NCBI GenBank assembly: GCA_015064485.1
Contig: SVSD01000002.1
Coordinates: 49,709 to 113,708, forward strand
DNA from: Oscillospiraceae bacterium
GTDB lineage: Bacteria > Bacillota > Clostridia > Oscillospirales > CAG-382
Direction of reading: 5' to 3'
Length of the DNA stretch: 64,000 bases
Shown here: in pieces, positions 4,445 to 19,990 of the stretch
Layout of the letters: the number at the start of each line of letters is the position of its first letter
Numbering within the stretch: the stretch's first letter is position 1
The notes under the pieces: generated by a model
The model's input: only the letters and a program-made list of their open reading frames with translations
Database searches by the model: none
Told to the model about the DNA's origin: nothing
Translations under genes and position numbers: made by a program

Positions 4445-5686
4445 TTAAGAGTTCAATCCCAATTCGTAGCGGATACTTCTTTTTTCCTCTTCGGTAAGAT
4501 CAAAGCTGTTTATAATTTTCAAAAGCTGTTCTTTGGAATATTTTGGCTCGTAATAATCTCCTGACTTGTGTTCGACAACGCTCTTTTGTGCTTCTCTGAC
4601 AAGTTCAAGGCAAGCTTTATATTCATCACCGTATTTTGCTTGGTTTTCAGAATTTGTATTGTCGGCATTTTTCTTATCCTGCATTACCGAATACTGGAAT
4701 TTTTCTCTTGCAAGAGCGTCATCTCTTTCGCTGTTTTTGACTTCCTGTTCAAATTCCTTTGTCCATTTTTCATAATCAAGATCATTTTGTTTTTGGCGCA
4801 TCTCAAGTTCTCTTTCGGTAACGCTTTTTTCGTACTCGTCATTTGATTTGCCCTGATAATAATCCGCCCACCATTTTTCATCCTCAACCGAATCTCTTTG
4901 CTTCTGGTACTGAGCATTTTTCTCATCAGCAAGAAGTGAATTATAGCGATAATACTCATCAGATGCCTGCATCATCATTTCCGAAGACAAGGTATTAAGA
5001 TCCTGCATAAGAGAGCTTCTTATATCGGCGATCATCTTATCTCTTTCCGCCTGAAGGCTCTTTAAAAGATCACGGTATTCATCTTCCATTCTCAGCTCTT
5101 CTGAGAGAACTCTTCCGCCGCCCTTCGAAACTCCTTCATTCAACAGCGCTTCGTCAAGATACTTGTTCTTTTTCTCATAAGCTTTTTTGACTTCAGCAAT
5201 CTGCTTTTCGTAATCTTCATTTACAGACTTAATATAGTCATTTGCCTGTTTCTGCAAAACACTGCCTCGCTGATTTATCGCCCTTACATAAGAATCAATG
5301 ATCGTCTGCTGAAGACTTTCCGAACTCCTTGAATAAGGATCTTTATAATAAGGAGTTTCGGATGTTATTTTTTTAGGTTCAGATATTGTAGAAACATTTT
5401 TACCGACACTTTCTGTCATATTCCCGAAAAGTCTTTGTGCATATCCGTCTTTTGACACATTTGACGAGTCAATTCCCATAGCCGCCGCTTTGCCGAGGTT
5501 GTAATTATAACTGACTGTATCTGCCCATTTCATCTGTTCGCTTACATCAAGACCGTTTGCGAGTCTTGCGCTTATGGCATCCTGTGTTCTTGCAATTTCT
5601 TCTTTATAAAGTTCTTCATTGCCGCCGGCAAGCATTTTAAGACGCTCATCCGCCGGAACGGTAGCATATTTATATTTTGTAGACAT
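4445..5686 (-). CDS. phage-derived coiled-coil structural protein (function unknown; possibly internal/ejection or tail-associated)
   Basis: 413 aa, charged heptad-like central region; last gene of the phage-like operon. Confidence 0.55.
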   Translation of the reverse strand: MSTKYKYATVPADERLKMLAGGNEELYKEEIARTQDAISARLANGLDVSEQMKWADTVSYNYNLGKAAAMGIDSSNVSKDGYAQRLFGNMTESVGKNVSTISEPKKITSETPYYKDPYSRSSESLQQTIIDSYVRAINQRGSVLQKQANDYIKSVNEDYEKQIAEVKKAYEKKNKYLDEALLNEGVSKGGGRVLSEELRMEDEYRDLLKSLQAERDKMIADIRSSLMQDLNTLSSEMMMQASDEYYRYNSLLADEKNAQYQKQRDSVEDEKWWADYYQGKSNDEYEKSVTERELEMRQKQNDLDYEKWTKEFEQEVKNSERDDALAREKFQYSVMQDKKNADNTNSENQAKYGDEYKACLELVREAQKSVVEHKSGDYYEPKYSKEQLLKIINSFDLTEEEKRSIRYELGLNS

Positions 5687-5704
5687 AAAATCGTTCCTTT
5701 CATT

Positions 5705-7549
5705 TTAATCGTAAAATTTCACTCTTTCCGCCTTTTGCCACAAAAAAACAAGGTTTTCAACACATATTCCGCCGCCATCCATTTCAAGTTTTACCGAGTA
5801 TCTGTTTGCACAGTATGAGGGGATCTTAACGGTAAGTTTTCCTTCGCTTTTGTCGGTTTTTACAGTTGTATTATAGAAAAGCTTCCCGTCTGCAAAAAAG
5901 GAAAGATTAAAGCTCCTTTCTCTCCCGCTTTTATTCTCGTAATCAAAAGAAAATTTCAAGAGTTTTTTTCTCAGATAGCTGTTGCCGAAATCATATTTCT
6001 TGGTTGTGAAATAAGAGATGATATTTTTTTCAGTTGTACTTCCATCCTCAGAAAAAACAGTATCGCAAAAATCCTCTGCGGAACATTCAAAAATTTCCGT
6101 TTTTTCTTTGCTTCCCACAAAATACAATTTTCCCGCAAGAGCAAACATATCGGAAAAATCGCCCGCTTCGCAAATTTTGAACCAGGGAAGCTTCTTTTGG
6201 GAGGTTCTGTATTCTGCGCCCGAATAAAAAGGTACTCTGCCATAATCCCACATATAGATCGATTTTCCGTTACAGATAAAATACTTTCTGTCAAAATCGC
6301 AGGAAAAGCATTTTCCCTCTTTCGCAAAAGGAACTCCTGTATCTCCTTTTAAATTTTGAGAAATCGGTAAAATATTAAGCTCATCAAAAATATCGGTTGA
6401 CTGCAAAATATATATTCCGTCGGTTTTGTCGCCGAAAACTATTGTGTTATCAAGTGCATTTACACTTCCGCTCATACTGCATCCCACACCTGTATTTATG
6501 GAATTTACAGTAAAAACCGGGCCGTTTTCTTCCGAAAACGAATATGACATCGAATAGATATGCTTGTCGGTAAAGAAGTACATCTTTTCATATCTTTTTT
6601 CAGCTCCGTTTACATTTTCGCTTCCGTCGCCCAAAGTTTCCTGAGTGTTGTCAGGGAAATACAAAGGATTTTTGAGTTCGCTTCTGAAATACATCGAAGG
6701 ATACTCGGGATTTCCCGTAATAAAGGCGCGGCTTCCGTCTTTTGTCGTACCACCGTAGCAAAACGCGATTTTTGAGCCGTAAATCTTTGAAAGATATTCA
6801 TTCATTGTCTCATTTGAAGCATCTATTGTATACTCCACTTCGATCGGTGATTTAAGCCCCGGGCCATCCTTGAAATAGAAAGCTACATGCATATTGTCTG
6901 AAGAATAGTCCTGCTGCATGGGTTTTAACCTTTGTCCATCTTTAATAATACAACACGGCTGAGAAGTATCGGCAGGATACGGCAAATCAAAGGATTGGGT
7001 TGTTTCGTAACCTGTACCCGATACCAAATTATAGTGACATCTTACACGCTTGGTAAGCATATTAAAAGGTTCAAATGTTTCGTAACTCGAAAGCCACTTG
7101 TCAGCATTCTGAATAATTATAGGATAATAAGGCTCTATTTCTTTACAGTTAAAATCCTTGTCTGTTTCAAAGATCTTTTTATCGCTTGAATAGAAATAGA
7201 CCTTAGCATTCATGCGCAAAAAAAAGCCTTCCTCTCCTACATTTTCACACATTGTATGGATGTTTTCGCCGTCAAAACGGTAAAGGGAAGTTCCTGCATG
7301 AAAAATTATATTACCGTAATATTCCTCGGGAAATTTTGATTTGTATTCTCCCTCGACTTTTGTTCCGACACAGCATAAAGCATCTCTTGTTTTTAAAATT
7401 CCGCCGTCAAAGCAGATATTTGACATTTCGGTGACGAAGCTGTCGTCACCGTTGTCATCAAAAGTATATCCTCCCGAAAGTTTTTCCACCTTGTAAAGAT
7501 ATTTGCTGACGGATGAAATACTTCCGGTACTTACAGAATTATATGCCAT
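5705..7549 (-). CDS. phage-derived large structural protein (possible tail/nozzle-type beta-rich protein)
   Basis: 614 aa, beta-rich, aromatic/Gly-rich repeats; sits downstream of the capsid genes; no motif recognised. Confidence 0.5.
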   Translation of the reverse strand: MAYNSVSTGSISSVSKYLYKVEKLSGGYTFDDNGDDSFVTEMSNICFDGGILKTRDALCCVGTKVEGEYKSKFPEEYYGNIIFHAGTSLYRFDGENIHTMCENVGEEGFFLRMNAKVYFYSSDKKIFETDKDFNCKEIEPYYPIIIQNADKWLSSYETFEPFNMLTKRVRCHYNLVSGTGYETTQSFDLPYPADTSQPCCIIKDGQRLKPMQQDYSSDNMHVAFYFKDGPGLKSPIEVEYTIDASNETMNEYLSKIYGSKIAFCYGGTTKDGSRAFITGNPEYPSMYFRSELKNPLYFPDNTQETLGDGSENVNGAEKRYEKMYFFTDKHIYSMSYSFSEENGPVFTVNSINTGVGCSMSGSVNALDNTIVFGDKTDGIYILQSTDIFDELNILPISQNLKGDTGVPFAKEGKCFSCDFDRKYFICNGKSIYMWDYGRVPFYSGAEYRTSQKKLPWFKICEAGDFSDMFALAGKLYFVGSKEKTEIFECSAEDFCDTVFSEDGSTTEKNIISYFTTKKYDFGNSYLRKKLLKFSFDYENKSGRERSFNLSFFADGKLFYNTTVKTDKSEGKLTVKIPSYCANRYSVKLEMDGGGICVENLVFLWQKAERVKFYD

Positions 7550-7564
7550 AACATCAACCTCCCG

Positions 7565-8536
7565 TCATCCGAAAAACCGTCTTATGCCTCTTCTTTTTCC
7601 GTAAGCCGCAGAATAAAAACTGTTTCTGTTGAACGGATTTGACGAAGGATAACAATTTGCAAGTATTTCACGGTATTTATAAGTAAGTCTTGTATAAAGC
7701 TCGCCGTCTTCCCTTTCGCAAAGCTCGGCGGCTGTGGCATATACAGCGGCAGAAAAGGCGGATGGGGAAAGTTCGATAACTGTATTATCATTTGAGTTTT
7801 CGGAAAGCTCCTTCGGGCAGAAGTAATATTCCACCAAATATGTTCCCGCATTTTTTTCGCTGCACGATAAAACCCCGTCGGAAAACTCAAAAATATCGCA
7901 TCTGCAAGGATGCGTTCTGTCGCCTGTGACCTTAAGTACCCTTGAAATTTCGATACATTCGGGAGATATTTCACAATAAAGCTTCTTTCCGTCGGGCAAA
8001 AACCTTTCATCAGGGCAATATCCCACACTTTTACTCGTATAGCTTTTTAGATTTTTCACATCAACAAAAGCTTTTTCTTTGCAGAAAAAAATAATATCCG
8101 AAGCATTTTCGGGAATTAATGCTTTAAAAATTTTGAGTTGACTGTAAGGAGAAATTATTTCTTTTTTCAAAACAGCATTCCCGTCGCCGTCACAAAATAC
8201 AATATTACATTTTCCGCAAAATTCGAAACTCAAAGCGCCCGAATCAGCGGGAAGAGAAACGAGCTTTTCCTCGCCGCTTATAAGCGAAAAATCGCAAACC
8301 TTCATCAGAACACCCGGAGTTTTAAAGACAACACTTTTCTTTTCAAGCCGTCTGTCGCAAGAAAGACTTACAAGGCGGATAGCGGCGTTTGCCGCCGAAA
8401 TAAACCTTTTTTCCATATCTCCGACAGCACCCGAAAATATTTCGTGTTCTTTTCCGTTGCAGCTGTATTCATCAAGCACCCTGAAAACATCGCTGCGAAA
8501 TCTTCCCAGAGTATAGCTTAAATTTCTGTCGTTCAT
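7565..8536 (-). CDS. phage-derived structural protein, function unknown
   Basis: 323 aa ORF, co-oriented and tightly spaced in the phage-like operon. Confidence 0.5.
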   Translation of the reverse strand: MNDRNLSYTLGRFRSDVFRVLDEYSCNGKEHEIFSGAVGDMEKRFISAANAAIRLVSLSCDRRLEKKSVVFKTPGVLMKVCDFSLISGEEKLVSLPADSGALSFEFCGKCNIVFCDGDGNAVLKKEIISPYSQLKIFKALIPENASDIIFFCKEKAFVDVKNLKSYTSKSVGYCPDERFLPDGKKLYCEISPECIEISRVLKVTGDRTHPCRCDIFEFSDGVLSCSEKNAGTYLVEYYFCPKELSENSNDNTVIELSPSAFSAAVYATAAELCEREDGELYTRLTYKYREILANCYPSSNPFNRNSFYSAAYGKRRGIRRFFG

Positions 8537-8573
8537 TCTTCAATTCCTTTCAGCTGTTTGTTTTGCAGGTGAT

Positions 8574-8604
8574 TTTTGTGGGATACCCGAGGTATCCCAC
8601 AAAA
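8574..8604 (-). other. perfect 14-bp stem hairpin inside the phage-like operon
   Basis: TTTTGTGGGATACC cga GGTATCCCACAAAA between the 89-aa and 323-aa genes; no adjacent U-tract on the transcribed strand. Confidence 0.6.
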
Positions 8605-8610
8605 TAAATT

Positions 8611-8880
8611 TCAGAATGTATCCGATACGATCAAATAAATTGTTTTTTCGGCATCTGTCGGGTTATAAACCGAAACCTCTCCCGAAAATTCAATTACTTC
8701 ACCTTCATATGTCTTATATCCTTTAGTCTTATCGGACTGGGACATACCGCAAACCACCACCCCTTCGGGGAAGGAAATTCTTGCGGAAAGTCCATCGTCA
8801 CCGGCAATAAATGACTTTTTCGGAGAAATCGTAATTTCTTCCGATTTTATGACCCTTGCGGGCTGATATGTAACAAACAT
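8611..8880 (-). CDS. phage-derived small protein downstream of capsid gene
   Basis: 89 aa ORF, 15 nt after the capsid-like gene. Confidence 0.5.
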   Translation of the reverse strand: MFVTYQPARVIKSEEITISPKKSFIAGDDGLSARISFPEGVVVCGMSQSDKTKGYKTYEGEVIEFSGEVSVYNPTDAEKTIYLIVSDTF

Positions 8881-8894
8881 AAAAATCCTCCTTA

Positions 8895-9812
8895 TTATGC
8901 GGGATCAGAGAAGATGATAGGTCTTGCATCGCCGAAACCGAAACCGAAATCGACATAACCGATATAGTCGGTAATCAAAGGATTTGCTTCGTGAGATACA
9001 AGAACTGTGGGTTCTGTGATGTAAACGAGCTTCAAAATTTCGGGGAGAAGCATAGAATCGGCAATAGCCCACTTCTTACCGGTAAGACCGATACCGCCTC
9101 CGCCGACTACCATATACTTCATACCGTAAACAGGGTTTGCGGCATTCATAGGTGCATCCGCATCGGGATTCTTTTCGGGGATAAGGCGGGAGTTGGGGCC
9201 GCAGATCTCCTTTGCCTTCGGTTCAAGCTCAGGGCTTACGAGAAGAAGGTCAAAATTACCTGCAAAAGGAAGTCCGTCGGGTGTTACAAAAGATGCGGCC
9301 TTTGTCTGCGCCGCTGTGATTGCCGCAACAGAAAGGTTGGAATGAATGATGTTTGAATATGTTTCATCAGATTCGGAATTTACTCTGTGCTTATCAGATG
9401 CCCAGGGAGTGCCGTCGGCGCCCACCTTTGTAAAAGCATCGCCGAAAAGACGGTAAAACTCGTTAAGTACGGTCATATATGCGGAATCCGCAAGGCGTGT
9501 ACCGACCTTTTCAGACTCCTTGCTCTGGTCGATCTTTGTCTTTTTATAGGACATAGTAACTTTTAAAGCGTGTTCCTTGGGGGTAATCGTTGTGATAAAG
9601 CCTCTCTTCTGATCAGCTTCGGCAATATTGGAACCATCATAAACGGGAATTTCGCCGTAACCGCCAACCCCTTCAAAACGGTAATCAACGCTGTCCTGAG
9701 TTATAACCTCGCAAAGCTGTGAGATAATGTCCATTCTGTCACCGTAGCGAAGATCAAAGCGCTTTTTAACAAGAGGGTAAAGATCCTGCGGCCAAGTATA
9801 AATATCGTTCAT
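8895..9812 (-). CDS. major capsid protein candidate (HK97-fold, gpT-like size)
   Basis: 305 aa; positioned after portal and scaffold; length and composition typical of major head proteins; assignment by synteny and memory only. Confidence 0.65.
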   Translation of the reverse strand: MNDIYTWPQDLYPLVKKRFDLRYGDRMDIISQLCEVITQDSVDYRFEGVGGYGEIPVYDGSNIAEADQKRGFITTITPKEHALKVTMSYKKTKIDQSKESEKVGTRLADSAYMTVLNEFYRLFGDAFTKVGADGTPWASDKHRVNSESDETYSNIIHSNLSVAAITAAQTKAASFVTPDGLPFAGNFDLLLVSPELEPKAKEICGPNSRLIPEKNPDADAPMNAANPVYGMKYMVVGGGGIGLTGKKWAIADSMLLPEILKLVYITEPTVLVSHEANPLITDYIGYVDFGFGFGDARPIIFSDPA

Positions 9813-9845
9813 ATTAAAAATTCTCCTTTGTTTTTATATTTTTTA

Positions 9846-10490
9846 TCAGTGAATAAAAGTTTCCTTGAAACAGATCTCAAAATAATCTCTTTCGGGAAGT
9901 GCGCTTACAACCTTGGCAATTGTACCGGGGTTGTTTGCAAAATCAAAATCATATCCGTTGTCGCAAAGTGCAAGGGCATCAAAACCGCAAGGCGGGATTA
10001 CTGCATAAACATCACCTACGCAAGGTGTTCCGCCTTCCTTTACGGTAAGAGTGTTGCCCGAGGAGGCGATGATTTCTCTTGCAAGGCCTGTGTGGTCGGT
10101 ATTTGTGCTTGTTTCATTCTTTGAAATAAGCTTAATATATCCGCCCTTCAAAGCATCGGCTCCGGCAGGGAGCTCGAGACCGGATACATTTATCTGTGTA
10201 GCCGTTCCCTTTTCGGAAACTTCAAAAACCTTGTTTGCGATTGCAATTATCATACCGGGAGAAACGATAACTCTGACTCTTCCGGAACCCGAACGGGGAT
10301 TTAATTCTTCCTTTTTCACTTTGTAGGATTCTGCAAGAATACCGAGAACTGTATCGGTATTTTCAGCCTTTTTGACTTTGCCGTTATTAAGAGTCACCGC
10401 TGTGCCCTTAAAAAGATCTTCTTCTGTTTCGATTTCGTATTCACGGATACAGGGAGATGCAGTCCCTGCGCTGTTCATAATATACTCCAT
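9846..10490 (-). CDS. phage head-associated protein (possible decoration or accessory head protein)
   Basis: 214 aa ORF between the scaffold-like and capsid-like genes. Confidence 0.45.
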   Translation of the reverse strand: MEYIMNSAGTASPCIREYEIETEEDLFKGTAVTLNNGKVKKAENTDTVLGILAESYKVKKEELNPRSGSGRVRVIVSPGMIIAIANKVFEVSEKGTATQINVSGLELPAGADALKGGYIKLISKNETSTNTDHTGLAREIIASSGNTLTVKEGGTPCVGDVYAVIPPCGFDALALCDNGYDFDFANNPGTIAKVVSALPERDYFEICFKETFIH

Positions 10491-10510
10491 ATTACTTTCC
10501 TTTCGTTATT

Positions 10511-11206
10511 TTACTTTCCGATTTTTTTCGACGGTATTTGTGATAAAAACTCGGAATACTGTTTGTAGGACATCCCGGCGGATGCCGCTATTCTCTTTTG
10601 ATTTTCTGTAAGTAAACTTGCGTAATCGGGCGTCCCCGCCGCATACCCCGAAAATCCCGTGGAAGCAAGTCCACGCTGTGCCGCTCTTGCGTGTGCCGCA
10701 GATTTTGCGTTTTCCATACCTGCAAGAAAAATACAGTAATCTTCAAACAGAGTTACAAGATCTCCTTCTCGCCTTTTGCAAAAGCTTCTGAACATCTTGT
10801 CCTCCATAACCTCTCCAAGCTTTTCCTCGCCGTACAAAGCAGCAAACTCAGAGAGCTCCCTTAACCGTTTTTCCTTTTCGGATATGTAATTTCCATCCGC
10901 TCCGCCTTCATTATCGGCTTTCTGTGCGTCGGGAACCGCATCAGTGCCGTTGTCTTCTCCGACGGGCGTCTTATCCGCTGAAAGCGATACTGCAAGTTCC
11001 GAAAGCTTTTGTGCAATTTTGGCATTCGAAAGATTTTTAAACCCCTCTTCTTTTCTTATCATCCCAAGTGCTTCACGCACTTTGATAAGCGATTCGTTGT
11101 TTTTTCTCTCTCTTGAAAGCCTTGTTTCTACAATGTTTTCGAGATCTTCTGCTGTATATAATTTTTCATCGGATAAATTCTTGTGTTCCCGGGATCTTGT
11201 TTCCAT
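10511..11206 (-). CDS. phage scaffolding protein candidate
   Basis: 231 aa, helical and charged; N-terminal LYTAEDLENIVETRLSRERKN resembles scaffold proteins of Firmicutes phages; overlaps the portal 3' end by 41 nt. Confidence 0.6.
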   Translation of the reverse strand: METRSREHKNLSDEKLYTAEDLENIVETRLSRERKNNESLIKVREALGMIRKEEGFKNLSNAKIAQKLSELAVSLSADKTPVGEDNGTDAVPDAQKADNEGGADGNYISEKEKRLRELSEFAALYGEEKLGEVMEDKMFRSFCKRREGDLVTLFEDYCIFLAGMENAKSAAHARAAQRGLASTGFSGYAAGTPDYASLLTENQKRIAASAGMSYKQYSEFLSQIPSKKIGK

Positions 11207-12953
11207 AAAGCTCCTCCTTCATATCTTTCATTATTTCGTCTTTATTGTTTTGAGAAAATTTCCTTTCGAGCGAATCACATATATCTCCTCTCATCGGAAG
11301 TCCGATAAGTTCCACATAGCTTTGTATAAGTCTGTAATTGTCCTCTGTAACAGGTACTTTTATAAGTTCCGAAAGTGCCTGAATTGTGAAAGCTTTGGAA
11401 TTTGCAACTCCGTCGCCCACATGAATCTTTACATCCACAACAGGAATATATGCGCTCTCCGAATTTTCGGGATATGTTGCAAAATCGTTGAATCTGTAAA
11501 CAGTTTCACCCGCGTCAACCGCTCCTATTGATATAATTCTTCCGTCGTCGTAATATTCAAGTGCCGTACGATCAATAAGTTCGTAAAGCCGCTTGAAACC
11601 TTCGGATTTTATTACCTTTTTCATCATCTGACGGTTTTTCGATCTTTCATTTATCAAAGCAATTCCCGATGCCGTTGTAACACGGGTAGGTTCAACCCCC
11701 TGATTAAGCTCGTAATTTCCCGTCGTATCTCTCATAACACTTCGCCAGTGTTCTGAATTGTTGTACTGATTTGTTTCCGAGTAAGCTCCGTTTCCAAGTC
11801 TTTGTATCTTGCCCATCATACCGGGGCGAAGCTTCCATACAGCACCGGGGGAATTATCCAGCGTTCCGTCATCTGAAAGTGCATTTTCCTCGGCAACTAT
11901 TATGTCATTCGAAGAAAAAGCGGAATTGAGCTGAGCATATGCAAGCTCTCTGTCTGCCGCATCAATAAGCGGAACAAGTGCTTCAAGTTCACTTTTACCC
12001 CATACGCTGTCTTCTTTGGGAATCTTTGAATATATGACAAACGGGAACATCGAGCAAACAGTATTTTTCCAGTATTTGGGTATATATCTTATTTCTCTGT
12101 CGCCGATAAGAATGGAAAGGGCGATATCCCCTGCTTTCCATTTGTAATTCACCTTGACTTTTTCACCGTTTATGTTGCAGACAATAGACTGCTGACCGTC
12201 CTGCGGCTGTCTGAACCACCATTCGGTTACGGTTACGGTATCGTCGGAAGCGTCAAAAGCTCCCGCTTCTTCTCCCGTATATTCATAATACCCGTACCCT
12301 GAGCGATAACCGTTTATATAGTCATCAATATCCGTACCCATTTCTTTAAGCTCGTTTTCAAAAACTCTTTTTGCCTTCTGCTTATGAAGTCTGTATACAT
12401 ATCCTATATATTCACATCCATCTACCGTAGAAGACGAAGGATCGGTAAATATCTGCTCCGGCTTCGGATTATCAACAATTACATCCCCGTAATTGTATCC
12501 GTCAAAAACAGACGAATCCCAGCAAACCTTGTATACCGCAGAACCCAAAATATTAAGTCTTCTTTCGTTTACAGCATTTTTATGCTGAAGGGCGTTTATA
12601 TCACAAATATATCTTGTGATATACTCTCTCTGCTTTGCCCTGTCAAAATCCTCATGAGCCCTTGGAGAAAACTCAAAATCGGGGACTGCAGTATCAACCT
12701 GGCTTTCCACATGAATAAATCCGTCGGTCGCCTGAGCAGGCTCCCAGGGGATGTCCTGTTCCTGAGTAAAAACAGCATTATGTACGCGTATCTCGTGATC
12801 GCCGTCATAATACGCTCTCATTTTTTTCCAATAAGTGCTTATAGGATTTTTGCTTTTGCCTGCGAGAGAAAGCAATGATTTGATGGTTTTTTCTCTTGCA
12901 TACGAGTCGGAATAATCATAAATTCCCAACAAAGAATCTTTTGATCTTTTCAT
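11166..12953 (-). CDS. phage portal protein
   Basis: 595 aa immediately downstream of large terminase; N-terminal YYDGDHEI motif reminiscent of SPP1-type portals. Confidence 0.75.
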   Translation of the reverse strand: MKRSKDSLLGIYDYSDSYAREKTIKSLLSLAGKSKNPISTYWKKMRAYYDGDHEIRVHNAVFTQEQDIPWEPAQATDGFIHVESQVDTAVPDFEFSPRAHEDFDRAKQREYITRYICDINALQHKNAVNERRLNILGSAVYKVCWDSSVFDGYNYGDVIVDNPKPEQIFTDPSSSTVDGCEYIGYVYRLHKQKAKRVFENELKEMGTDIDDYINGYRSGYGYYEYTGEEAGAFDASDDTVTVTEWWFRQPQDGQQSIVCNINGEKVKVNYKWKAGDIALSILIGDREIRYIPKYWKNTVCSMFPFVIYSKIPKEDSVWGKSELEALVPLIDAADRELAYAQLNSAFSSNDIIVAEENALSDDGTLDNSPGAVWKLRPGMMGKIQRLGNGAYSETNQYNNSEHWRSVMRDTTGNYELNQGVEPTRVTTASGIALINERSKNRQMMKKVIKSEGFKRLYELIDRTALEYYDDGRIISIGAVDAGETVYRFNDFATYPENSESAYIPVVDVKIHVGDGVANSKAFTIQALSELIKVPVTEDNYRLIQSYVELIGLPMRGDICDSLERKFSQNNKDEIMKDMKEELYGNKIPGTQEFIR

Positions 12954-12973
12954 AGTTTTTTCCTTTCATAAAG

Positions 12974-14299
12974 TCATAATTTCCGCAGATGTGCGTTGCC
13001 TTTTATCTTTTGAGAAAGCCTTTTGGGTTTTTCTTTCTTTTCATTTTGCGAAGCAAAAAATGCTCTTGAAGATGCAAAATACCTCAAAGCATCGGGGGCG
13101 TGAGTTATTTCGTGAGGCTTTGTAGACGCATCTCCCGGTTTTTTCGGATCATGCAATAGCTGCGGAAGACATCTGATAAGATTTGAACAATTCCTGAAAA
13201 TCGTCATTTTGCTCTTTTTTCTGCCGTCCTCATCTATATAAGGCTTGAGCCATTCTTTAAGACAAAGAAAACTCTGTACTCTTTCGGGAGATATCTTTGT
13301 AAGATAGACCCCGTTTTCGCAAAAAAGCTCATATATGCTTTTCCCCGAATCCTTTTGTCTGCTCCATAAATCGCTCGGTGCGATAAACTGGCAAACACCC
13401 GAAGACTTTTCTTTTATTTTTTTTGCCGCCTCGCTTACAATAAGGTCTTTTTCATAAACCTCATCATAAACATGTGCATGACCGTCGGGAGAAAGAGCCA
13501 CAAAAACCGCTGCAAGCATATCAAGTCCGTAGTCAATAGCACAGTATCTTGACCATTCCTTCGGGATCTCATGCTCGTCGCAGGTATGTACCGACATATC
13601 AAATTCAGGGAAAAACTGCCCCTGAAAAGCATCCCATTTTCCGTAAAGCCAGGCGTCACGAAGGGAAACAGGTAAGCTTTTAAGTCTTTCGATATAATCC
13701 GGATCCTTTGAAAGCAATGCTTTATTGTCGTAAACAACAGCAGGAATAAATCTGTAGTCCTTCGGGTTTTCGCCTTCCCTGTAATCTCTGTCGATAAAAA
13801 GCCGTTTTACCCAACCGTGTCCCACTCCTCCGGGGTTGCAGGTAATATACATTCGTTTCGGAAAGTCGTTGGCGCCGCGAAGACAGCCCTTAAAGGTCTG
13901 AAACTGATACTCTGTAAGCTGGGTAGCCTCATCAAGGGCGATTATATCAAATTCCTGTCCCTGATACCTGTCCACATCTCCTTCGCTGTCGCAATATCCC
14001 ATTTTGATATGAGAACCGTTTTTAAATTCAAAGGTCTTTCTTGTGTCGGTATATGTTGCGATCTCCGCAAGCTCGGCACACATAGGCCGTATATGATTTT
14101 CTCTCAGCTCCTGATAGCTTTTTCTTACAATAAGAACCGAAAGTCCCGGATATCTTAAACACATAAGTATCATCTTCCGCCTTAAAGCCCAGCTTTTCCC
14201 TCCGCCTCTTGCTCCGCCGTATGCCACATATTTTTCGTCAGCCGAAAAAAAGAGCATCTGCTTTTCCTGCGGATATCCTTTTAAAAAAAGTTTCTTCAA
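12974..14299 (-). CDS. phage terminase large subunit
   Basis: 441 aa; Walker A GGARGGGKS; Walker B IIALDEAT; C-terminal nuclease-like region. Confidence 0.85.
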   Translation of the reverse strand: MKKLFLKGYPQEKQMLFFSADEKYVAYGGARGGGKSWALRRKMILMCLRYPGLSVLIVRKSYQELRENHIRPMCAELAEIATYTDTRKTFEFKNGSHIKMGYCDSEGDVDRYQGQEFDIIALDEATQLTEYQFQTFKGCLRGANDFPKRMYITCNPGGVGHGWVKRLFIDRDYREGENPKDYRFIPAVVYDNKALLSKDPDYIERLKSLPVSLRDAWLYGKWDAFQGQFFPEFDMSVHTCDEHEIPKEWSRYCAIDYGLDMLAAVFVALSPDGHAHVYDEVYEKDLIVSEAAKKIKEKSSGVCQFIAPSDLWSRQKDSGKSIYELFCENGVYLTKISPERVQSFLCLKEWLKPYIDEDGRKKSKMTIFRNCSNLIRCLPQLLHDPKKPGDASTKPHEITHAPDALRYFASSRAFFASQNEKKEKPKRLSQKIKGNAHLRKL

Positions 14300-14301
14300 A
14301 T

Positions 14302-14697
14302 TTATTCACCAAGCCTTTTTGCATCCTCGGAAAGTTCAAGCGAAAAACCTTCGATGTCCTCTTGCTTTGTCTGCCAGCCGAAATGTTCCTTAAGAGAGTT
14401 AATCGAAGCTGTAGCCGATAATCTGCCGGCAAGAGAATTTTCTTCGATATAAGCTTCGATCCTTCTTTTTGCACCCGAAATTATACGCCTTAATGAACGG
14501 GAGCTGTTTTCCAGCTCCGAAAGCTCTTTTGCACTCATATCAAGGTAATACAAAAGGCCTGTCAGCGTATAGGGCTTTTTGGTTTTCTTATCTTTGTCAA
14601 GCTCATTGTTTTCTCCGTCGCACATAGCAAAGTATCTGTTTATCCTTTTTTCAAGCTCTTGTTTTCCTGTTTTGCCCTTATAAATATTCTGTTTCAA
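14302..14697 (-). CDS. phage terminase small subunit candidate (start uncertain, TTG proposed)
   Basis: Directly upstream of TerL (2-nt gap). The long track ORF overlaps the upstream gene; TTG at 14697 is preceded by AAGGGGAAG; helix-rich basic protein. Confidence 0.5.
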   Translation of the reverse strand: MKQNIYKGKTGKQELEKRINRYFAMCDGENNELDKDKKTKKPYTLTGLLYYLDMSAKELSELENSSRSLRRIISGAKRRIEAYIEENSLAGRLSATASINSLKEHFGWQTKQEDIEGFSLELSEDAKRLGE

Positions 14698-14710: not shown

Positions 14711-14962
14711 TTAGTCGTTTCCGAGCATATGACACAGCTCGTAAAAATTATCCTCGGCATAATCCTGCCAACAGCTGCGGTGTATTGTATCGCCTGTCGA
14801 CATAACAAACGCCTTTTCCTCGCCCTTTACGATTTCGTAACCGCAGTACATGCATTTCTCACAAACACATTCGGGGTCGTCGTCTTTATCTTTTGATGAA
14901 AAAATTCCTTCCTCATCAAGTATCTCTTTTTCAAATGCAATAAAATCTATGCAACTATTCAT
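14711..14962 (-). CDS. small Cys-rich (zinc-ribbon-like) protein, first gene of the packaging operon
   Basis: 83 aa from ATG 14962 with RBS AAGGAGGGAGAGG; CVCEKCMYCG plus HRSC motifs. Confidence 0.5.
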   Translation of the reverse strand: MNSCIDFIAFEKEILDEEGIFSSKDKDDDPECVCEKCMYCGYEIVKGEEKAFVMSTGDTIHRSCWQDYAEDNFYELCHMLGND

Positions 14963-14978: not shown

Positions 14979-14990
14979 AAACATTTGTTC
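14979..14990. promoter_or_regulatory. Cheo-box-like palindrome AAACATTTGTTC (one mismatch to GAAC-N4-GTTC)
   Basis: Read directly; lies in the 5' leader just upstream of the RBS of the first packaging-operon gene. Confidence 0.4.
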
Positions 14991-15045
14991 TTAGAATTGT
15001 ACAAAAAATAAAAGAACATCAAAGACAAATTCGAATTTGTTTTTC

Positions 15046-15057
15046 AAACCTCTGTTC
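15046..15057. promoter_or_regulatory. Cheo-box-like palindrome AAACCTCTGTTC
   Basis: Read directly; lies just downstream of the predicted transcription start. Confidence 0.4.
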
Positions 15058-15070
15058 TTGTTATGCTGTG

Positions 15071-15099
15071 ATTATACCACAAAAATTGGAAAAAGTCAA
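15071..15099 (-). promoter_or_regulatory. strong sigma-A promoter of the packaging/head operon
   Basis: Minus strand TTGACT (15094-15099), 17 nt, TGgTATAAT extended -10 (15071-15076). Confidence 0.7.
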
Positions 15100-15108
15100 G
15101 AATTATTT

Positions 15109-15120
15109 GAACCTTTGTTC
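15109..15120. promoter_or_regulatory. perfect GAAC-N4-GTTC palindrome (LexA/Cheo-box-like operator)
   Basis: GAACCTTTGTTC, 9 bp upstream of the -35. Confidence 0.5.
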
Positions 15121-15206
15121 TAATTTCGGCTATTTTCACAATCTTTTTAGCATTTTTGTTCGATTTTTTGAATATTATTTGTTTATTATACCTATTGACA
15201 ATTAAA

Positions 15207-15218
15207 GAACTTGCGTTC
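15207..15218. promoter_or_regulatory. perfect GAAC-N4-GTTC palindrome (LexA/Cheo-box-like operator)
   Basis: GAACTTGCGTTC, between the nnr terminator and the packaging promoter. Confidence 0.5.
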
Positions 15219-15220
15219 TA

Positions 15221-15264
15221 AAAAATAATCGGTTGCATCAAACACAAAAACTGATGCAACCGAT
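15221..15264 (-). terminator. rho-independent terminator of nnr
   Basis: 13-bp stem ATCGGTTGCATCA / TGATGCAACCGAT followed on the minus strand by TATTTTTT. Confidence 0.8.
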
Positions 15265-15282: not shown

Positions 15283-16785
15283 TCAGAACCCTTTTCTGAG
15301 TTCCTTTACCGCCAAATGTATGGATTTTACAGTATCCGAGGAAGTCATACAGATATCCCCGACACTTTCTTGCGCAAATTCTCCCGCAAGTCCCGAAATA
15401 TATGCGGCGCAGGAAACCGACAACTCATCCGGCTCACAATAGCCCATAAGTCCTGTCAGAATTCCCGACAAAACATCTCCGCTTCCCGCAGTCGCCATCC
15501 CTGCACATCCCGTGTCGGTGATAAAAACTTCTTTTTCGCCGGCAATGACAGTCCCCGCACCTTTCAAAAGAAGAATTACTTTTCCGTTTTTGTCTTTGAG
15601 GTACTCCTTTGCGCTTCCGACAGGATCGGAAAGTATTTTTTCCGTTTCATATCCCGATATCCTTGAAAACTCGAGAGGATGCGGTGTAAGTATTATTTTT
15701 TTGCAGCTTGTACGGGATAAAATATTTTTATCAAGTTTAGATAAGGCATTTATGCCGTCTGCATCAATAATCAGAACACCTTCGTAATTTTCTATAATAT
15801 ACGAAAGTATCTTCCCGTTATCTTTACCGTTTCCCCACCCCATTCCGCAGGACACCGCGGCAGTCCCCTTTAAAAGCAAATTGATTTTCTCTTTGTGAAA
15901 AATCATACTGCCGTCTTCATCGGGCATAACAAAAAGCGTACTTTCAAGAAGATACGGTGCAACATACGAAGAAACGGACTCCGCCACACACAGTTTTGTT
16001 ACGCCGCATCCGCTTTTCAGTGCGGAAAGAGCCATATTCGAAAGCTTTACAGCTCCCGAGTATTCGCGGCATCCGCCGATAATTGCAGTATATCCGAAAT
16101 TACCCTTGTGGCAATTATTTTCCCTTTCCCTTAAAATGTCCTTAAAATCAGCTTTTTCGGGTACAGAGACCTTTTCGCCCATAAGCGAAATTCCGATATC
16201 AATGCATTTTTTACTTTTCATTACATCTTTGGAGCGTCCGATAAAATGTCCGAGCTTATAAAACTGAACAGCAACTGTAAGATCGGATATGACCGAAATA
16301 TCTCCCAGTCCGCTGTCGCCCGAAATCCCCGAATTTATATCGGCACTTACAATATATGCGCCTGATTTGTTCATTCTTTCAATGCATTTTTCGACATTTC
16401 CGGAAACTTTACCCCGAAATCCCGTTCCGAAAATACAATCGGCAAGAGTATCAAATTTTGAAAATTCTGTGCCGTCAGAAAAGATTTCATACTCTATTCC
16501 CTTTTCAACGCACTTTTCAAAATAGTATCTTCCGTCTTCGGAAAATTTGTCCTCTACAAGAACTATTCTGCAGTTTCCTCCGTTTTCGTGTATTGCAAGC
16601 GCAATAACAAACCCGTCGCCGCCGTTATTTCCCGTTCCGCAAACGACGCAGGTATTACCCCAATTGCCGTATGCTTTAAAAATACCTCTGCCTGCACGGA
16701 GCATAAGCTCTTTTGAATCCGTTCCGCACTTTATAGTATTTTCGTCGGATATGCGCATAACTTTATTTGAAACTGCAACTTTCAT
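15283..16785 (-). CDS. nnr: bifunctional NAD(P)H-hydrate repair enzyme (epimerase + ADP-dependent dehydratase)
   Basis: 500 aa; YjeF-N motif GTGNNGGDG; C-terminal carbohydrate-kinase motif GSGDVLSG. Confidence 0.9.
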   Translation of the reverse strand: MKVAVSNKVMRISDENTIKCGTDSKELMLRAGRGIFKAYGNWGNTCVVCGTGNNGGDGFVIALAIHENGGNCRIVLVEDKFSEDGRYYFEKCVEKGIEYEIFSDGTEFSKFDTLADCIFGTGFRGKVSGNVEKCIERMNKSGAYIVSADINSGISGDSGLGDISVISDLTVAVQFYKLGHFIGRSKDVMKSKKCIDIGISLMGEKVSVPEKADFKDILRERENNCHKGNFGYTAIIGGCREYSGAVKLSNMALSALKSGCGVTKLCVAESVSSYVAPYLLESTLFVMPDEDGSMIFHKEKINLLLKGTAAVSCGMGWGNGKDNGKILSYIIENYEGVLIIDADGINALSKLDKNILSRTSCKKIILTPHPLEFSRISGYETEKILSDPVGSAKEYLKDKNGKVILLLKGAGTVIAGEKEVFITDTGCAGMATAGSGDVLSGILTGLMGYCEPDELSVSCAAYISGLAGEFAQESVGDICMTSSDTVKSIHLAVKELRKGF

Positions 16786-16853: not shown

Positions 16854-17015
16854 TTAAAAAACCTTGTCTTCGTCAGAGGTAAGCGCTTCATACTCAGCCT
16901 GGGAAATTTCATAATAGCAGCTTTCATCCTCGCCTTGCGCAAGATATATTTTTCTTCCGTAAGTTTTGCCGTTTGTAAGAATACAGCCTTTTGATGCTTC
17001 AATTACTTTTCTCAT
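16854..17015 (-). CDS. small phage-associated protein (53 aa, below the ORF-track cutoff)
   Basis: My own translation: MRKVIEASKGCILTNGKTYGRKIYLAQGEDESCYYEISQAEYEALTSDEDKVF; RBS AGGAGAAAGAG; 12 nt after the upstream fibre gene. Confidence 0.4.
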   Translation of the reverse strand: MRKVIEASKGCILTNGKTYGRKIYLAQGEDESCYYEISQAEYEALTSDEDKVF

Positions 17016-17027
17016 ACTCTTTCTCCT

Positions 17028-17621
17028 TTACACAAGCGATATTGTCCAGTTTTGTTTTGACGCAACAAGAGCATTCCATTCATCTTCGGAAAAAGCATTA
17101 TTTACAGCCGTTTCGGAAAGAGTAAGGGTAAGACCGCTTGAAGAAGCAGAAAGTGCATTGACAATCGATTCTATCGAAGCTCTTGACAGCTTTGTACTCC
17201 AATGAATATCAAAGCTCTTCCCTATTGTCCCGCTCATTTCAAGATTAACAAGGTTTGTCACTCCGGTAAATGTATTTGTGAATGATGTGTTTTCATTAAC
17301 AGTAAATTTGCGTATAGTATGACAATTAGACATATTGTAAAAGCAATTATTTGCATTTTTTGCGGCAATAATTTCAACTTTTGTGTCTGTTATGAGTTCA
17401 TTTGCGTAGAATATTGCTTGTGAGCCTGTTGTGGTATCGGTGCTCTTAATAACATATGGGGGATTGTAATTGTTATCATCAAATCTGTTATAAGCAAACG
17501 CATAATAATAGTTAGCCGCACGACCGCCGTTTTGTATACCTTCCCAAACAGAAAGTCTTCCTGCCTCATACACATCGTCAATGTCCTGTTTTAACTGCAA
17601 GGATTTTTCAGCAATATTCAT
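17028..17621 (-). CDS. phage tail fibre-associated protein with leucine-rich-repeat-like core
   Basis: 197 aa; start overlaps the fibre gene stop (ATGA-type coupling); N-x-x-F/L repeats (NCFYNMSNC...FTNTFTGVTNLVNL). Confidence 0.55.
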   Translation of the reverse strand: MNIAEKSLQLKQDIDDVYEAGRLSVWEGIQNGGRAANYYYAFAYNRFDDNNYNPPYVIKSTDTTTGSQAIFYANELITDTKVEIIAAKNANNCFYNMSNCHTIRKFTVNENTSFTNTFTGVTNLVNLEMSGTIGKSFDIHWSTKLSRASIESIVNALSASSSGLTLTLSETAVNNAFSEDEWNALVASKQNWTISLV

Positions 17622-19618
17622 TATGCTTCACCCCCTGAAATTTTGGCTTGTGCGTAGCTGTGAAGCTCATCAAGAACGGAATCGATGTCGCCGACAAGCT
17701 CATCCACATATGTTTGGGTTACAAAATCTGCATCGTTTTCAAACTCGGACAGTTTCGTTTTTTCGTAGATGACATTTGTGCAGTTATTAAGTGTGATATT
17801 TTTATCAGTCGAATTCAAAATAACGGTGTCGCAACTACTCAAGTCAAAATTATTTGTGTTAGAAAAATCACATCCGATTATGTTTTTAGATTTGTATAAA
17901 TAACCTCTTTCCGAATGTAGTTTGTTATTATAAAATCCATTGAAATTAGCACAACTGCACATTTCAAGGGATATCGGATTGAAATTTTTTAAACGAGTAT
18001 TCGATCCAACAGCTTTTAAATTTGTTGATGTTAATTTCATCAAAAAGCCGTTACCGTCAATACTTAAAACATTAGTCGGCACATTAAGTGATATGGGATT
18101 AGCACTGTTACCCGATTCCATTTGTACATCACACTTTAACAGAATGTTTCTTGCTCCGTTCCAATCCTCTGTATCAATCATCGCATCCCATTCTTCTTGT
18201 GAATGTATGATTGTGTCATAAACAAGTTCCGTTTTTGTAACATATCCCGCATCATTCTCAAGCTCCGATACCTTTTTCGGCAAAGCCTCATCGGTAATAA
18301 AACCCTTATCATTTTCAAATTCCGAAAGCTTTTCGGGAATTGCCGATTCGGTAATATAACCCGTATCATTTTCAAATTCGGACAGCTTTGTTTTTTCGTA
18401 AATGATATTTGAGCAATCGACAATTTCCCATCCGTCCAAGCTATCGAAAAGGTCTTTAGAACCTGTATCAAGAATGATCGTATCGCAGTTTTCTAACTTT
18501 ATGATTTTGGTATCTCTTTCATCAAATTTAGAAAAACTACAACCTATAATGTTTTTACATTCTTGAATCATTGTATCGTTCGCTTGTAAAACACAGTTAT
18601 AAATGCCGTTTATTTTAGACAATGTATCACGAACAACACTTAAACTGTTGCAATTACGCAAAGAAGTATTTTTGCCTTTGGCGATTATTGTTACAAATGC
18701 AAAACCGAGCGAATAGCCGTTACCGTCAATAGTTACAACATTTTCGGGTATTTCTATCGTTCCGCCTATGCCGTATCTATTTGTAGTGATATCGCACCTT
18801 AACAGAATGTTTCTCGCACCATTCCAATCTTCCGTCGCAATCATTGCATCCCATTCTTCTTGCGATGTAATTACCCTATCATAAAACAAGTTTTCTTTTG
18901 TAATAAACCCCTTGTCATTATCAAGCTGTGAAAGCTTTTTCGGTAAAACCTCATCCGTAATATACCCTGTATCGTTTTCAAACTCCGATAGCTTTCCGGG
19001 AATATCCGATACGGTCATATATCCCGTATCATTTTCGATTTCCGATAGCTTTTTAGGAAGCGCGGATGCAGTTATATAGCCTGTATCGTTCTGAAATCCG
19101 GAAAGCTTTACGGGGATTTCAGATGCGGTAATATATCCTGTATCGTTTTCGAACTCCGAAAGTTTTTCGGGGATCGAAGACTCGGTTACATACCCGGCAT
19201 CATTTTCAAAATCAGAAAGCTTTTCCGGGACAGAATCTACAGCCTCCTGTACTTTTGAAACAAGCTGTGAATAAAGATCGGGAGTAGGCGGTATCGCAGT
19301 TTCGCCGTCAGAGGCAAAACCCGATTTCTGCATCGTAAATTCAAAAGGCAAAGTAGTTATTCGCAAAGCTTCTCCCGGCATTTGCCCGAATACCGAAAGT
19401 TTCACTTTTCCGACGGAAATTTCCGAGGGAACAGTGCAATATCCGTCCTCCACAAGGGCGTTGTAGGTTTTTTCTTCCTGGGTGAACTGTGCAGTTTTTA
19501 CAAGAGCCTGCCATTCTTCGCTGAATGAAAAATAAACTCTTAAATAATCAACACTGTCGGATGCGGTCTTAGTATATTCACCCGATATACTCTGACCGTT
19601 AATAACGATTTTTATCAT
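17621..19618 (-). CDS. phage tail fibre / receptor-binding protein with 19-aa KLSEFENDTGYIT repeats and a duplicated module
   Basis: 665 aa; 10 copies of P-x-KLSEFENDTGYIT-x4; two paralogous ~155-165 aa modules beginning YD..I.SQEEWDAMI.TEDWNGARNILL. Confidence 0.75.
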   Translation of the reverse strand: MIKIVINGQSISGEYTKTASDSVDYLRVYFSFSEEWQALVKTAQFTQEEKTYNALVEDGYCTVPSEISVGKVKLSVFGQMPGEALRITTLPFEFTMQKSGFASDGETAIPPTPDLYSQLVSKVQEAVDSVPEKLSDFENDAGYVTESSIPEKLSEFENDTGYITASEIPVKLSGFQNDTGYITASALPKKLSEIENDTGYMTVSDIPGKLSEFENDTGYITDEVLPKKLSQLDNDKGFITKENLFYDRVITSQEEWDAMIATEDWNGARNILLRCDITTNRYGIGGTIEIPENVVTIDGNGYSLGFAFVTIIAKGKNTSLRNCNSLSVVRDTLSKINGIYNCVLQANDTMIQECKNIIGCSFSKFDERDTKIIKLENCDTIILDTGSKDLFDSLDGWEIVDCSNIIYEKTKLSEFENDTGYITESAIPEKLSEFENDKGFITDEALPKKVSELENDAGYVTKTELVYDTIIHSQEEWDAMIDTEDWNGARNILLKCDVQMESGNSANPISLNVPTNVLSIDGNGFLMKLTSTNLKAVGSNTRLKNFNPISLEMCSCANFNGFYNNKLHSERGYLYKSKNIIGCDFSNTNNFDLSSCDTVILNSTDKNITLNNCTNVIYEKTKLSEFENDADFVTQTYVDELVGDIDSVLDELHSYAQAKISGGEA
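18224..18394 (-). repeat. three tandem 57-bp coding repeats (19-aa fibre repeat)
   Basis: Residues 409-465 of the fibre ORF. Confidence 0.8.
18887..19228 (-). repeat. six tandem 57-bp coding repeats (19-aa fibre repeat)
   Basis: Residues 131-244 of the fibre ORF; repeat register read from the translation. Confidence 0.8.
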
Positions 19619-19708
19619 AAAATGACCCTTTCATCGTTTCCGCCCATCCTTTCCGCTGCGTAACGGATAACAGGGCGTAATTTCCCGACCGCAAACATTT
19701 GTTTATAT

Positions 19709-19737: not shown

Positions 19738-19815
19738 GAACAAATTTTCTTAATTATATTTTCTCTGATTTTTGCAAAACTGCAGATAATTTTGTTTACA
19801 TAATCTTAAGTTAAA

Positions 19816-19990
19816 ACGGAAAAAACTTTCCGTAAATGTGGGAAACTTTTTGGGAAACTTAGGGAAAACCCGATGTTTTCCTTGCAGAAACCCACATTTT
19901 AGGGGAATTCCAAAATCAAAAACAGTTTTTTGAGAAAAAAGTTTCGGAAAAAGTTTCGGAAAATTCGGGACAAGTTTCCAAAGTTCGATA
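19816..19990. repeat. repeat-rich intergenic region: nested inverted repeats and phased GGGAAAC / GTTTC(C/G) arrays
   Basis: CGGAAAaaacTTTCCG; AAATGTGGG...CCCACATTT enclosing GGAAAAC...GTTTTCC; GGGAAAC x3; AAGTTTCGGAAA x2; AAGTTTCC. Confidence 0.7.

Follow-up and report, generated by a model that had tools for sequence, protein, structure and literature searches.

Conserved candidate LexA operators at two promoters of a gene-transfer-agent-like element of rumen and gut Clostridia

A cluster of phage-type head and packaging genes in the genome of an Oscillospiraceae bacterium is preceded by an array of short palindromic boxes, which has been kept at fixed positions in related lineages and which is likely to consist of operators for the host SOS repressor LexA (Cheo boxes, GAAC-N4-GTTY). 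The array surrounds the promoter P1 of the structural operon, and boxes of the same type flank a second promoter, P2, in front of an operon for tail-fibre-like proteins; LexA would in this case directly repress the element formed by the two operons. The DNA analysed, here called the window, is a stretch of 64,000 nucleotides (nt) of Oscillospiraceae bacterium (assembly GCA_015064485.1, contig SVSD01000002.1, positions 49,709-113,708 of the forward strand), and positions are those of the window unless a relative is named. From the sequences, we infer both that LexA is the protein that binds the boxes and that its binding represses.

The initial annotation of the window had described four RAAC-N4-GTTC boxes, two of them perfect and two with one mismatch, and their sequences and coordinates on the forward strand were confirmed (AAACATTTGTTC at 14979-14990, AAACCTCTGTTC at 15046-15057, GAACCTTTGTTC at 15109-15120 and GAACTTGCGTTC at 15207-15218). 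The boxes indeed lie in the non-coding stretch upstream of the operon, which extends from the terminator hairpin of the host gene nnr (15228-15264) to an open reading frame (ORF) for an 83-aa protein (14962-14711); this ORF, and not the terminase gene, is the first gene of the operon. Moreover, the promoter TTGACT-17-TGgTATAAT that the boxes were said to bracket exists and is flanked by them, but it is located on the minus strand. To these features can be added the half-box E, the promoter P2, a leader hairpin with a U-run and the nnr terminator as the upstream bound of the array. With box centres counted from a transcription start taken as about 7 nt past the -10 hexamer, the region around P1 reads as follows in the direction of transcription:

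Box D, 15207..15218, minus strand: perfect GAAC-N4-GTTC, coding strand AGAACGCAAGTTCT, centre at about -148, directly past the nnr terminator.
Box E (half-box), 15150..15161, minus strand: coding strand GAACAAAAATGC, centre at about -91, GAAC arm invariant, right arm degenerate.
Box C, 15109..15120, minus strand: perfect, coding strand GAACAAAGGTTC, centre at -50.5, ends 9 bp 5' of the -35 hexamer.
Promoter P1, 15071..15099, minus strand: -35 hexamer TTGACT (15099-15094), 17-bp spacer, extended -10 element TGgTATAAT (15079-15071; hexamer 15076-15071).
Box B, 15046..15057, minus strand: coding strand GAACAGAGGTTT, centre at about +13.5, within the RNA polymerase footprint.
Leader hairpin followed by an invariant ATTTTTT run, 15003..15059, minus strand: terminator- or attenuator-like, 5' arm overlaps box B.
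Box A, 14979..14990, minus strand: coding strand GAACAAATGTTT (AAGAACAAATGTTTAA), centre at about +80.5, 2 bp 5' of the ribosome-binding site.
First gene of the operon, 14711..14962, minus strand: 83-aa protein with an invariant C2HC zinc-binding motif (CxxC...GDxxHxxC).

The hexamers of P1 match the consensus at 11 of 12 positions and are accompanied by the TG extension. A promoter of such consensus strength needs a repressor rather than an activator. The boxes C and B are separated by 63-64 bp, which corresponds to six helical turns, and they should therefore face the same side of the DNA on either side of the promoter.

Perfect GAAC-N4-GTTC palindromes occur nowhere in the 64-kb window except at 15109-15120 and 15207-15218 (0.76 expected), and 23 sites with at most one mismatch were observed, compared with 25 expected. 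Since the window-wide count is ordinary, it is only the clustering of four boxes within 240 bp that is unusual. When the intergenic region (320 bp) was simulated with a first-order Markov model, the mean was 0.10 matches, and none of 20,000 runs gave four or more. When the window was shuffled in 300-bp blocks, thereby preserving the local composition, a cluster of four boxes in 240 bp appeared in 3 of 1,000 shuffles. By both calculations, chance does not account for the four boxes.

The boxes were also traced in related loci, which are designated here by L numbers. A close set comprises five lineages with 57-100% identity among their 83-aa proteins, and a wide set comprises nine lineages, adding L140-L143. 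In the five close lineages, the box spacing is fixed (D-57-E-41-C-63-B-67/69-A) while the intervening sequence drifts. Pairwise identity amounts to 92% for the box arms, with 32 of 40 columns invariant, to 62% for the N4 spacers and to 64% for the rest of the intergenic region; the promoter hexamers are 100% identical. Box D is retained in L011 and L012 and carries one mismatch in L014/L015. In the wide set, all nine lineages have a box with its centre between +11.5 and +14.5 and eight have one at about -50.5; a box precedes the ribosome-binding site in eight, and additional boxes are found at -83 to -148 in seven. The promoters of L140 and L142 that are equivalent to P1 even match the consensus at 12 of 12 positions. 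In the distant relatives, many boxes are fully palindromic (AGAAC-N4-GTTCT or CGAAC-N4-GTTCG). Conservation in orthologous loci, a test on which the first description had staked its proposal, is thus of the kind expected for binding sites, with arms kept, spacers free and positions fixed.

A second promoter with the same elements precedes the other operon:

Promoter P2, 19709..19738, minus strand: core CTTGACTTTTT-N8-TGTGGTATAAT, elements identical to those of P1.
P2 upstream box, 19738..19749, minus strand: coding strand GAAAATTTGTTC, one mismatch, abuts the -35 hexamer, 13.2 bits.
P2 downstream box, 19693..19704, minus strand: coding strand AAACAAATGTTT, begins 5 bp past the -10 hexamer and overlaps the transcription start, 10.9 bits.
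Second operon, 16854..19618, minus strand: 665-aa tail-fibre-like protein with 'SEFENDTGYIT' repeats, followed by 197-aa and 53-aa proteins.

P1 and P2 are the sole matches to the core CTTGACTTTTT-N8-TGTGGTATAAT in the window, where none is expected, and L011 has retained both P2 boxes. The host gene nnr thus lies between two operons whose promoter cores are identical and which both carry boxes; lysis genes were not found. This arrangement suggests that the P1 and P2 operons form one regulon.

The identity of the binding protein is suggested by the operators of other clostridia, which have the sequence GAAC-N4-GTTT or GAAC-N4-GTTC (PMC4234289). In Clostridioides difficile, surface plasmon resonance revealed binding of LexA to the operators of recA (GAGAACAAATGTTTGT), lexA (AGGAACAAATGTTTGC) and uvrB (AGGAACTAATGTTCGA) (PMC4234289). 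The 12-bp core of box A (AAGAACAAATGTTTAA) is identical to that of the C. difficile recA and lexA operators, and box B of the relative L142, with which these operators were also compared, reads CAGAACTAATGTTCGA. The SOS genes of C. difficile (lexA, recA, ruvC and uvrB) share with the element the operator GAAC-N4-GTTT/C including an A/T-rich centre, for example AAAT. A LexA matrix was built from 11 C. difficile operators of the high-affinity group (Table 2 of PMC4234289), whose motif may differ from that of the host. With this matrix, 6 of the 13 best distinct sites in the window fall within P1 and P2. Across 87 kb of the four distant relatives, ten sites score at least 14 bits, and every one of them is confined to the 230 bp that precede the first gene. 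Unrelated genome loci with a total of 823 kb contain only 13 sites of at least 14 bits. The best match of the window is a different site, AAGAACTAAAGTTTTC at 24581-24596 (17.4 bits) inside a gene for the ATPase of an energy-coupling factor transporter, and it is probably due to chance.

The placement of the boxes is also that of LexA operators, with the +13.5 box present in nine of nine lineages and the P2 boxes abutting the -35 hexamer and overlapping the start. Moreover, five long loci, in which the element has different neighbours, encode no repressor and no integrase within the element or beside it, and L140-L143 are devoid of lysogeny genes. As the elements reside in different hosts and at different loci and never beside a regulator gene, the boxes are explained most economically by a universally conserved host factor. 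The earlier suggestion that the virion genes are repressed directly by host LexA therefore gains support from the conservation of the boxes, from their match to clostridial operators, from the overlap with the promoters and from the lack of a local repressor. Other known motifs of Firmicutes, such as SinR sites (GTTCTYT) and Spo0A boxes (TGTCGAA), do not fit the conserved dyad.

Several observations weigh against LexA as the regulator. The motif of the host's own SOS genes may differ from that of C. difficile. No box precedes uvrBA in L144, which holds the closest relative found of the UvrB protein of one element-bearing genome (60% identity, C-terminus). Five boxes over 240 bp are unusual for LexA; the SOS promoters of C. 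difficile carry one or two boxes, whereas P1 has four and a half-box over 240 bp, and these stand before virion genes. In the lineage of the window, the perfect half of the box is always on the 5' side of the coding strand. However, the full palindromes of the distant relatives indicate that this one-sided degeneracy is not general. Finally, the leader of the operon resembles a terminator and is conserved, so that de-repression by itself may not give expression.

SOS genes that could reveal the motif of the host were sought as well. As a check of the matrix, the upstream regions of uvrB were scored in 43 distinct loci out of 80 taxonomically unassigned metagenomic loci, and boxes were found in 7 of the 43, for instance CAGAACAAATGTTCTA in L201. 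The contig of the relative L142 contains a uvrB gene. Neither the window nor the flanking DNA that was reached contains an SOS gene, and a tblastn search of all fetched loci with approximate LexA and RecA queries returned only a CI-like repressor (L105) and a recA gene (L029).

The leader between the boxes B and A deserves separate consideration. A hairpin followed by a U-run is present at this position in all lineages, although the stem sequences are unrelated, and the ATTTTTT run is invariant in the close lineages. The hairpins of L012, L014, L016 and L143 have folding energies of -14 to -17 kcal/mol with z scores of -2 to -3, and the stem-loop of L140 (CGAGCGTTCGAAACGCTCG followed by ATTTTTTT) is a textbook example. 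In the window, the hairpin is followed by TTTTATTTTTT, but it is weak (-8.4 kcal/mol, z = 0.01). RNAalifold detected no common structure in the leader alignment, in which the stems are out of register. A pairing of box B with box A proposed by the program was discarded, as it is trivial for two similar palindromes. On this moderate evidence, the leader hairpin is probably an attenuator, which would either tighten the off state or require a further signal.

Taken together, these data are compatible with the following mechanism. Two sigma-A promoters would drive the element, one of them the podovirus-like head and packaging set and the other the tail-fibre-like proteins. In the undamaged cell, LexA dimers would sit on the +13 box within the RNA polymerase footprint and on the -50 box. 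The auxiliary boxes at about -148, -91 and +80 would also be occupied by LexA, and a very strong promoter would thus be kept silent. Upon DNA damage, activated RecA would bring about the self-cleavage of LexA, and both operons would be released together. The leader hairpin with its U-run would probably damp read-through or demand a further signal.

Three other explanations have to be weighed against direct control by LexA. The boxes could serve a dedicated repressor other than LexA, either a LexA paralogue or a CI-like protein with a helix-turn-helix (HTH) domain and an S24 peptidase domain, which would be encoded elsewhere, recognise a Cheo-like site and control the element only. There are precedents, because some LexA homologues, for example gp6 of the Bacillus phage GIL01, have a role of their own at phage promoters, and because in L105 a gene for a CI-like protein with HTH and S24 peptidase domains and a promoter of this type with the box AAACAAATGTTC are arranged divergently. 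The lack of a box upstream of uvrB in L144 would also agree with a private repressor, and the motif of the host may not be that of C. difficile. However, no such gene is found near the element in the five long loci with different neighbours, and the motif is indistinguishable from validated LexA operators. In addition, the motif is unchanged down to a portal identity of 54%, as would be expected of a universal host factor and less of an unlinked repressor. We therefore regard a dedicated repressor as unlikely. In L105 itself (5460-6580), the CI-like repressor has 206 aa, the box AAACAAATGTTC lies just past the -10 hexamer, and a small Cys-rich ORF and a serine recombinase gene follow.

The leader terminator could also be the main switch, in which case the promoter would be constitutive or semi-constitutive, transcripts would end at the hairpin with its U-run, an antiterminator would decide over expression, and the boxes would be secondary or serve another purpose. 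The presence of the hairpin and the U-run between B and A in every lineage, with L140 as the clearest example and with the invariant ATTTTTT run, speaks for such a role. The weak hairpin of the window and the failure of RNAalifold to find a common structure speak against it, and the upstream boxes C, D and E as well as the boxes at P2, which has no such leader, would be left unexplained. Moreover, a switch in the leader is compatible with control by LexA rather than an alternative to it, and we consider it quite improbable that the leader is the main switch. The third explanation, according to which the cluster of boxes arose by chance in an AT-rich intergenic region, can draw on the fact that the window as a whole has no excess of sites with up to one mismatch. 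It is hardly credible in view of the 20,000 simulations without a comparable cluster, the conserved arms next to free spacers and the identical positions in nine lineages; the comparative sequence data have already refuted it. Direct repression by LexA is thus the reading that we adopt in the following.

Apart from the promoters, the element consists of few genes, between which a host gene lies:

Structural operon, 4445..14697, minus strand: TerS (14697-14302, GP3_package family), TerL, a P22/SU10-like portal protein, 231-aa and 214-aa proteins, the 305-aa major capsid protein and then 89-, 323-, 614- and 413-aa proteins.
nnr, 15283..16785, minus strand: host gene for the NAD(P)H-hydrate epimerase/dehydratase, located between the two operons, with its own terminator at 15228-15264 (inverted repeat).

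The ORF for the 83-aa zinc-ribbon protein heads the operon in all nine lineages. An AlphaFold model of the protein (mean confidence, pLDDT, 69) gave only generic zinc-finger matches in a fold search, and a scan of metagenomes with the alignment of the protein found nothing. Neither a family nor a fold could be assigned; the protein may act in regulation or in packaging. The order of the operon from the 83-aa ORF through to the coiled-coil protein is kept in L140-L143, and L011 is syntenic as well. The portal proteins of L140-L143 are 74, 68, 60 and 54% identical to that of the window, and each of these clusters of about 11 genes is located between different housekeeping genes. The capsid is 74-90% identical in lineages whose portal identity is 54-74%. 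For the capsid protein, neither an NCBIfam match nor a sequence match in the PDB was obtained. Over 650 homologues of the portal were found among metagenomes and genome bins, many of them on contigs of 50-200 kb; a comparison with 50,697 phage genomes returned only one match with 22% identity. The viral contigs L001 and L002 were rejected as members of the family, since TerL is all that they have in common with it (52-54% identity) and they are GC-rich and have no boxes.

The setting of the element is that of a chromosome. To the left, it is flanked by a hydrolase gene, murF and ddl; to the right, past nnr and the fibre-like genes, translations were read as a gyrB/parE-like gene and other housekeeping genes. 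The gene nnr, which also has a promoter-like site of its own, lies between the operons in the window, in L003-L008, L011 and L012, and not in L014 or the distant relatives. The source genome bin (Ruminococcaceae/Oscillospiraceae, rumen) has the genes of the element annotated as hypothetical. Within the element of the window, there are no genes for an integrase, a repressor, replication or lysis. In the most distant relative, L143, a gene resembling a cell-wall hydrolase with CHAP and SH3 domains (17588-18985) follows the structural genes, and the cluster of the window has none.

The evolution of the genes is similar to that of their host. The ratio of nonsynonymous to synonymous substitution rates (dN/dS) relative to L011 is 0.025 for TerL, 0.029 for the portal and 0.007 for the capsid and ranges from 0.007 to 0.19 across the genes of the structural operon; dS of the element genes is 0.2-0.47, with 0.2-0.4 for TerL, portal and capsid, which is near the value of 0.45 for nnr. 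By these sequence measures, the cluster is under strong purifying selection, functional and vertically inherited. Gene content without lysogeny genes and host-like evolution together give the profile of a domesticated cluster resembling a gene transfer agent (GTA). The earlier picture of a phage missing its repressor is correct insofar as no repressor was found; the element is better described as a vertically inherited, GTA-like cluster, and we infer that it makes GTA-like particles.

The fibre-like protein (17621-19618) has tandem 'KLSEFENDTGYIT' repeats and an internal duplication. It is 64% identical to its counterpart in L011 (689-2095), which is shorter (468 aa), whereas the head genes of the two loci are 97-100% identical. 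The divergence in sequence fits the diversification of a receptor-binding protein. Positions 19819-19978, which separate P2 from the gyrB/parE-like gene, contain GGGAAACTT / AAGTTTC(G/C)G repeats with a spacing of 12 bp in two inverted groups; this array is nearly identical in L011, and a different regulator may bind to it.

The promoter core CTTGACTTTTT-N8-TGTGGTATAAT was also searched for in genome contigs. It proved to be a generic strong promoter, with 119 loci, many of them of Saccharibacteria. None of the 119 loci encodes homologues of the element proteins, and a few loci of Clostridia combine a box with phage-like cargo. For instance, L086 (3772-5300) and L120 (minus strand, about 2600-1500) from Eubacteriales bins have a lysis cassette with a holin-like and an amidase gene behind the same core, and their leaders contain a perfect AGAACATATGTTCT or AGAACAAATGTTCT. 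These cassettes could be 'second operons' of related elements. In L096 (2985-4350) and L024 (3548-4433), a fibre-like gene (start MEITLSIKGQELRV...) is found behind the same promoter core, and CGAACAAATGTTTG ends 7 bp upstream of the -35 hexamer.

Among known systems, the closest precedent for the regulation is GIL01, a temperate tectivirus of Bacillus thuringiensis, in which host LexA acts at dinBox1/1b of the promoter P1 and at dinBox2/3 of the late promoter P3 (PMC4551915; PMC6182141). The promoter P3 of GIL01 has two LexA boxes and drives the capsid and lysis genes (PMC6182141). Like the element, GIL01 has no CI-type repressor and several Cheo-type boxes at and just past the promoter of the capsid genes. 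In contrast to the element, GIL01 is a replicating linear prophage and relies on gp7 as a co-repressor of LexA and on the LexA-like protein gp6 as an activator of the weak promoter P3. The element is part of the chromosome, is devoid of replication genes and has promoters of consensus strength, boxes at -50 and +13 and a terminator-like leader. No homologue of gp6 or gp7 was identified in it, and the sequence features of the 83-aa zinc-ribbon protein are unrelated to those described for the two phage proteins.

With respect to gene content, the element resembles FpGTA of Faecalibacterium, which has a first operon of about 10.5 kb with ten ORFs and a separate operon for fibre and lysis (PMC12946183, Nat Commun 2026). 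The particles of FpGTA are podovirus-like, and the host DNA packaged in them measures about 8.5-9 kb (PMC12946183). Both elements belong to Ruminococcaceae/Oscillospiraceae, have an operon of about 10.5 kb with about ten ORFs that runs from TerS, TerL, portal and capsid to a coiled-coil 'TolA-like' protein, have a separate fibre operon and a portal of the short-tailed type, and are without replication or lysogeny genes. The likeness is one of architecture. Unlike in FpGTA, there are two genes and not one between portal and capsid, and the second operon has no holin or endolysin gene; moreover, the capsid of the element is not recognised by the NCBIfam model after which the FpGTA capsid is named ('N4-gp56 family'). 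The text of the FpGTA study contains no promoter or LexA analysis, with 0 occurrences of both 'promoter' and 'LexA' (PMC12946183).

The GTA of Rhodobacter capsulatus, like the element, is a domesticated phage-like particle that is tied to the SOS regulator. Its dependence on LexA, reportedly described by Kuchinski et al. in 2016, is said to be indirect through repression of cckA, the structural cluster itself being without LexA boxes. The element would differ from this system in having the boxes on the structural promoters themselves.

Thus, the kind of mechanism proposed here, in which LexA represses a mobile or phage-derived element, is known from GIL01. The setting and the architecture are new, namely a fixed multi-operator array together with a leader terminator on a GTA-like family of rumen and gut Clostridia. 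As a tentative generalisation, which we regard as possible rather than probable, the loci would represent a widespread family of domesticated podovirus-like GTAs in Oscillospiraceae and other gut and rumen Clostridia, whose dispersed operons have been placed under the host SOS repressor by means of a fixed multi-operator array and a leader attenuator. From the arrangement of the candidate operators, it seems that particle production would be turned on directly by DNA damage. In gut Ruminococcaceae/Oscillospiraceae, GTA-like particles have recently been reported to package host DNA to a prominent extent (PMC12946183). If the proposal is correct, the SOS response would act on the virion genes directly and without intermediate phage regulators, and the element would be a further case in which a host repressor fully replaces the lysis-lysogeny switch of a phage. 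A promoter of consensus strength that is flanked by boxes at -50 and +13 could then serve as a signature for locating other dispersed loci of such elements. Moreover, damage caused by antibiotics or feed additives would trigger the particles and thereby horizontal gene transfer in abundant commensals, which would link DNA-damaging drugs and components of the diet to gene flow among gut and rumen Clostridia.

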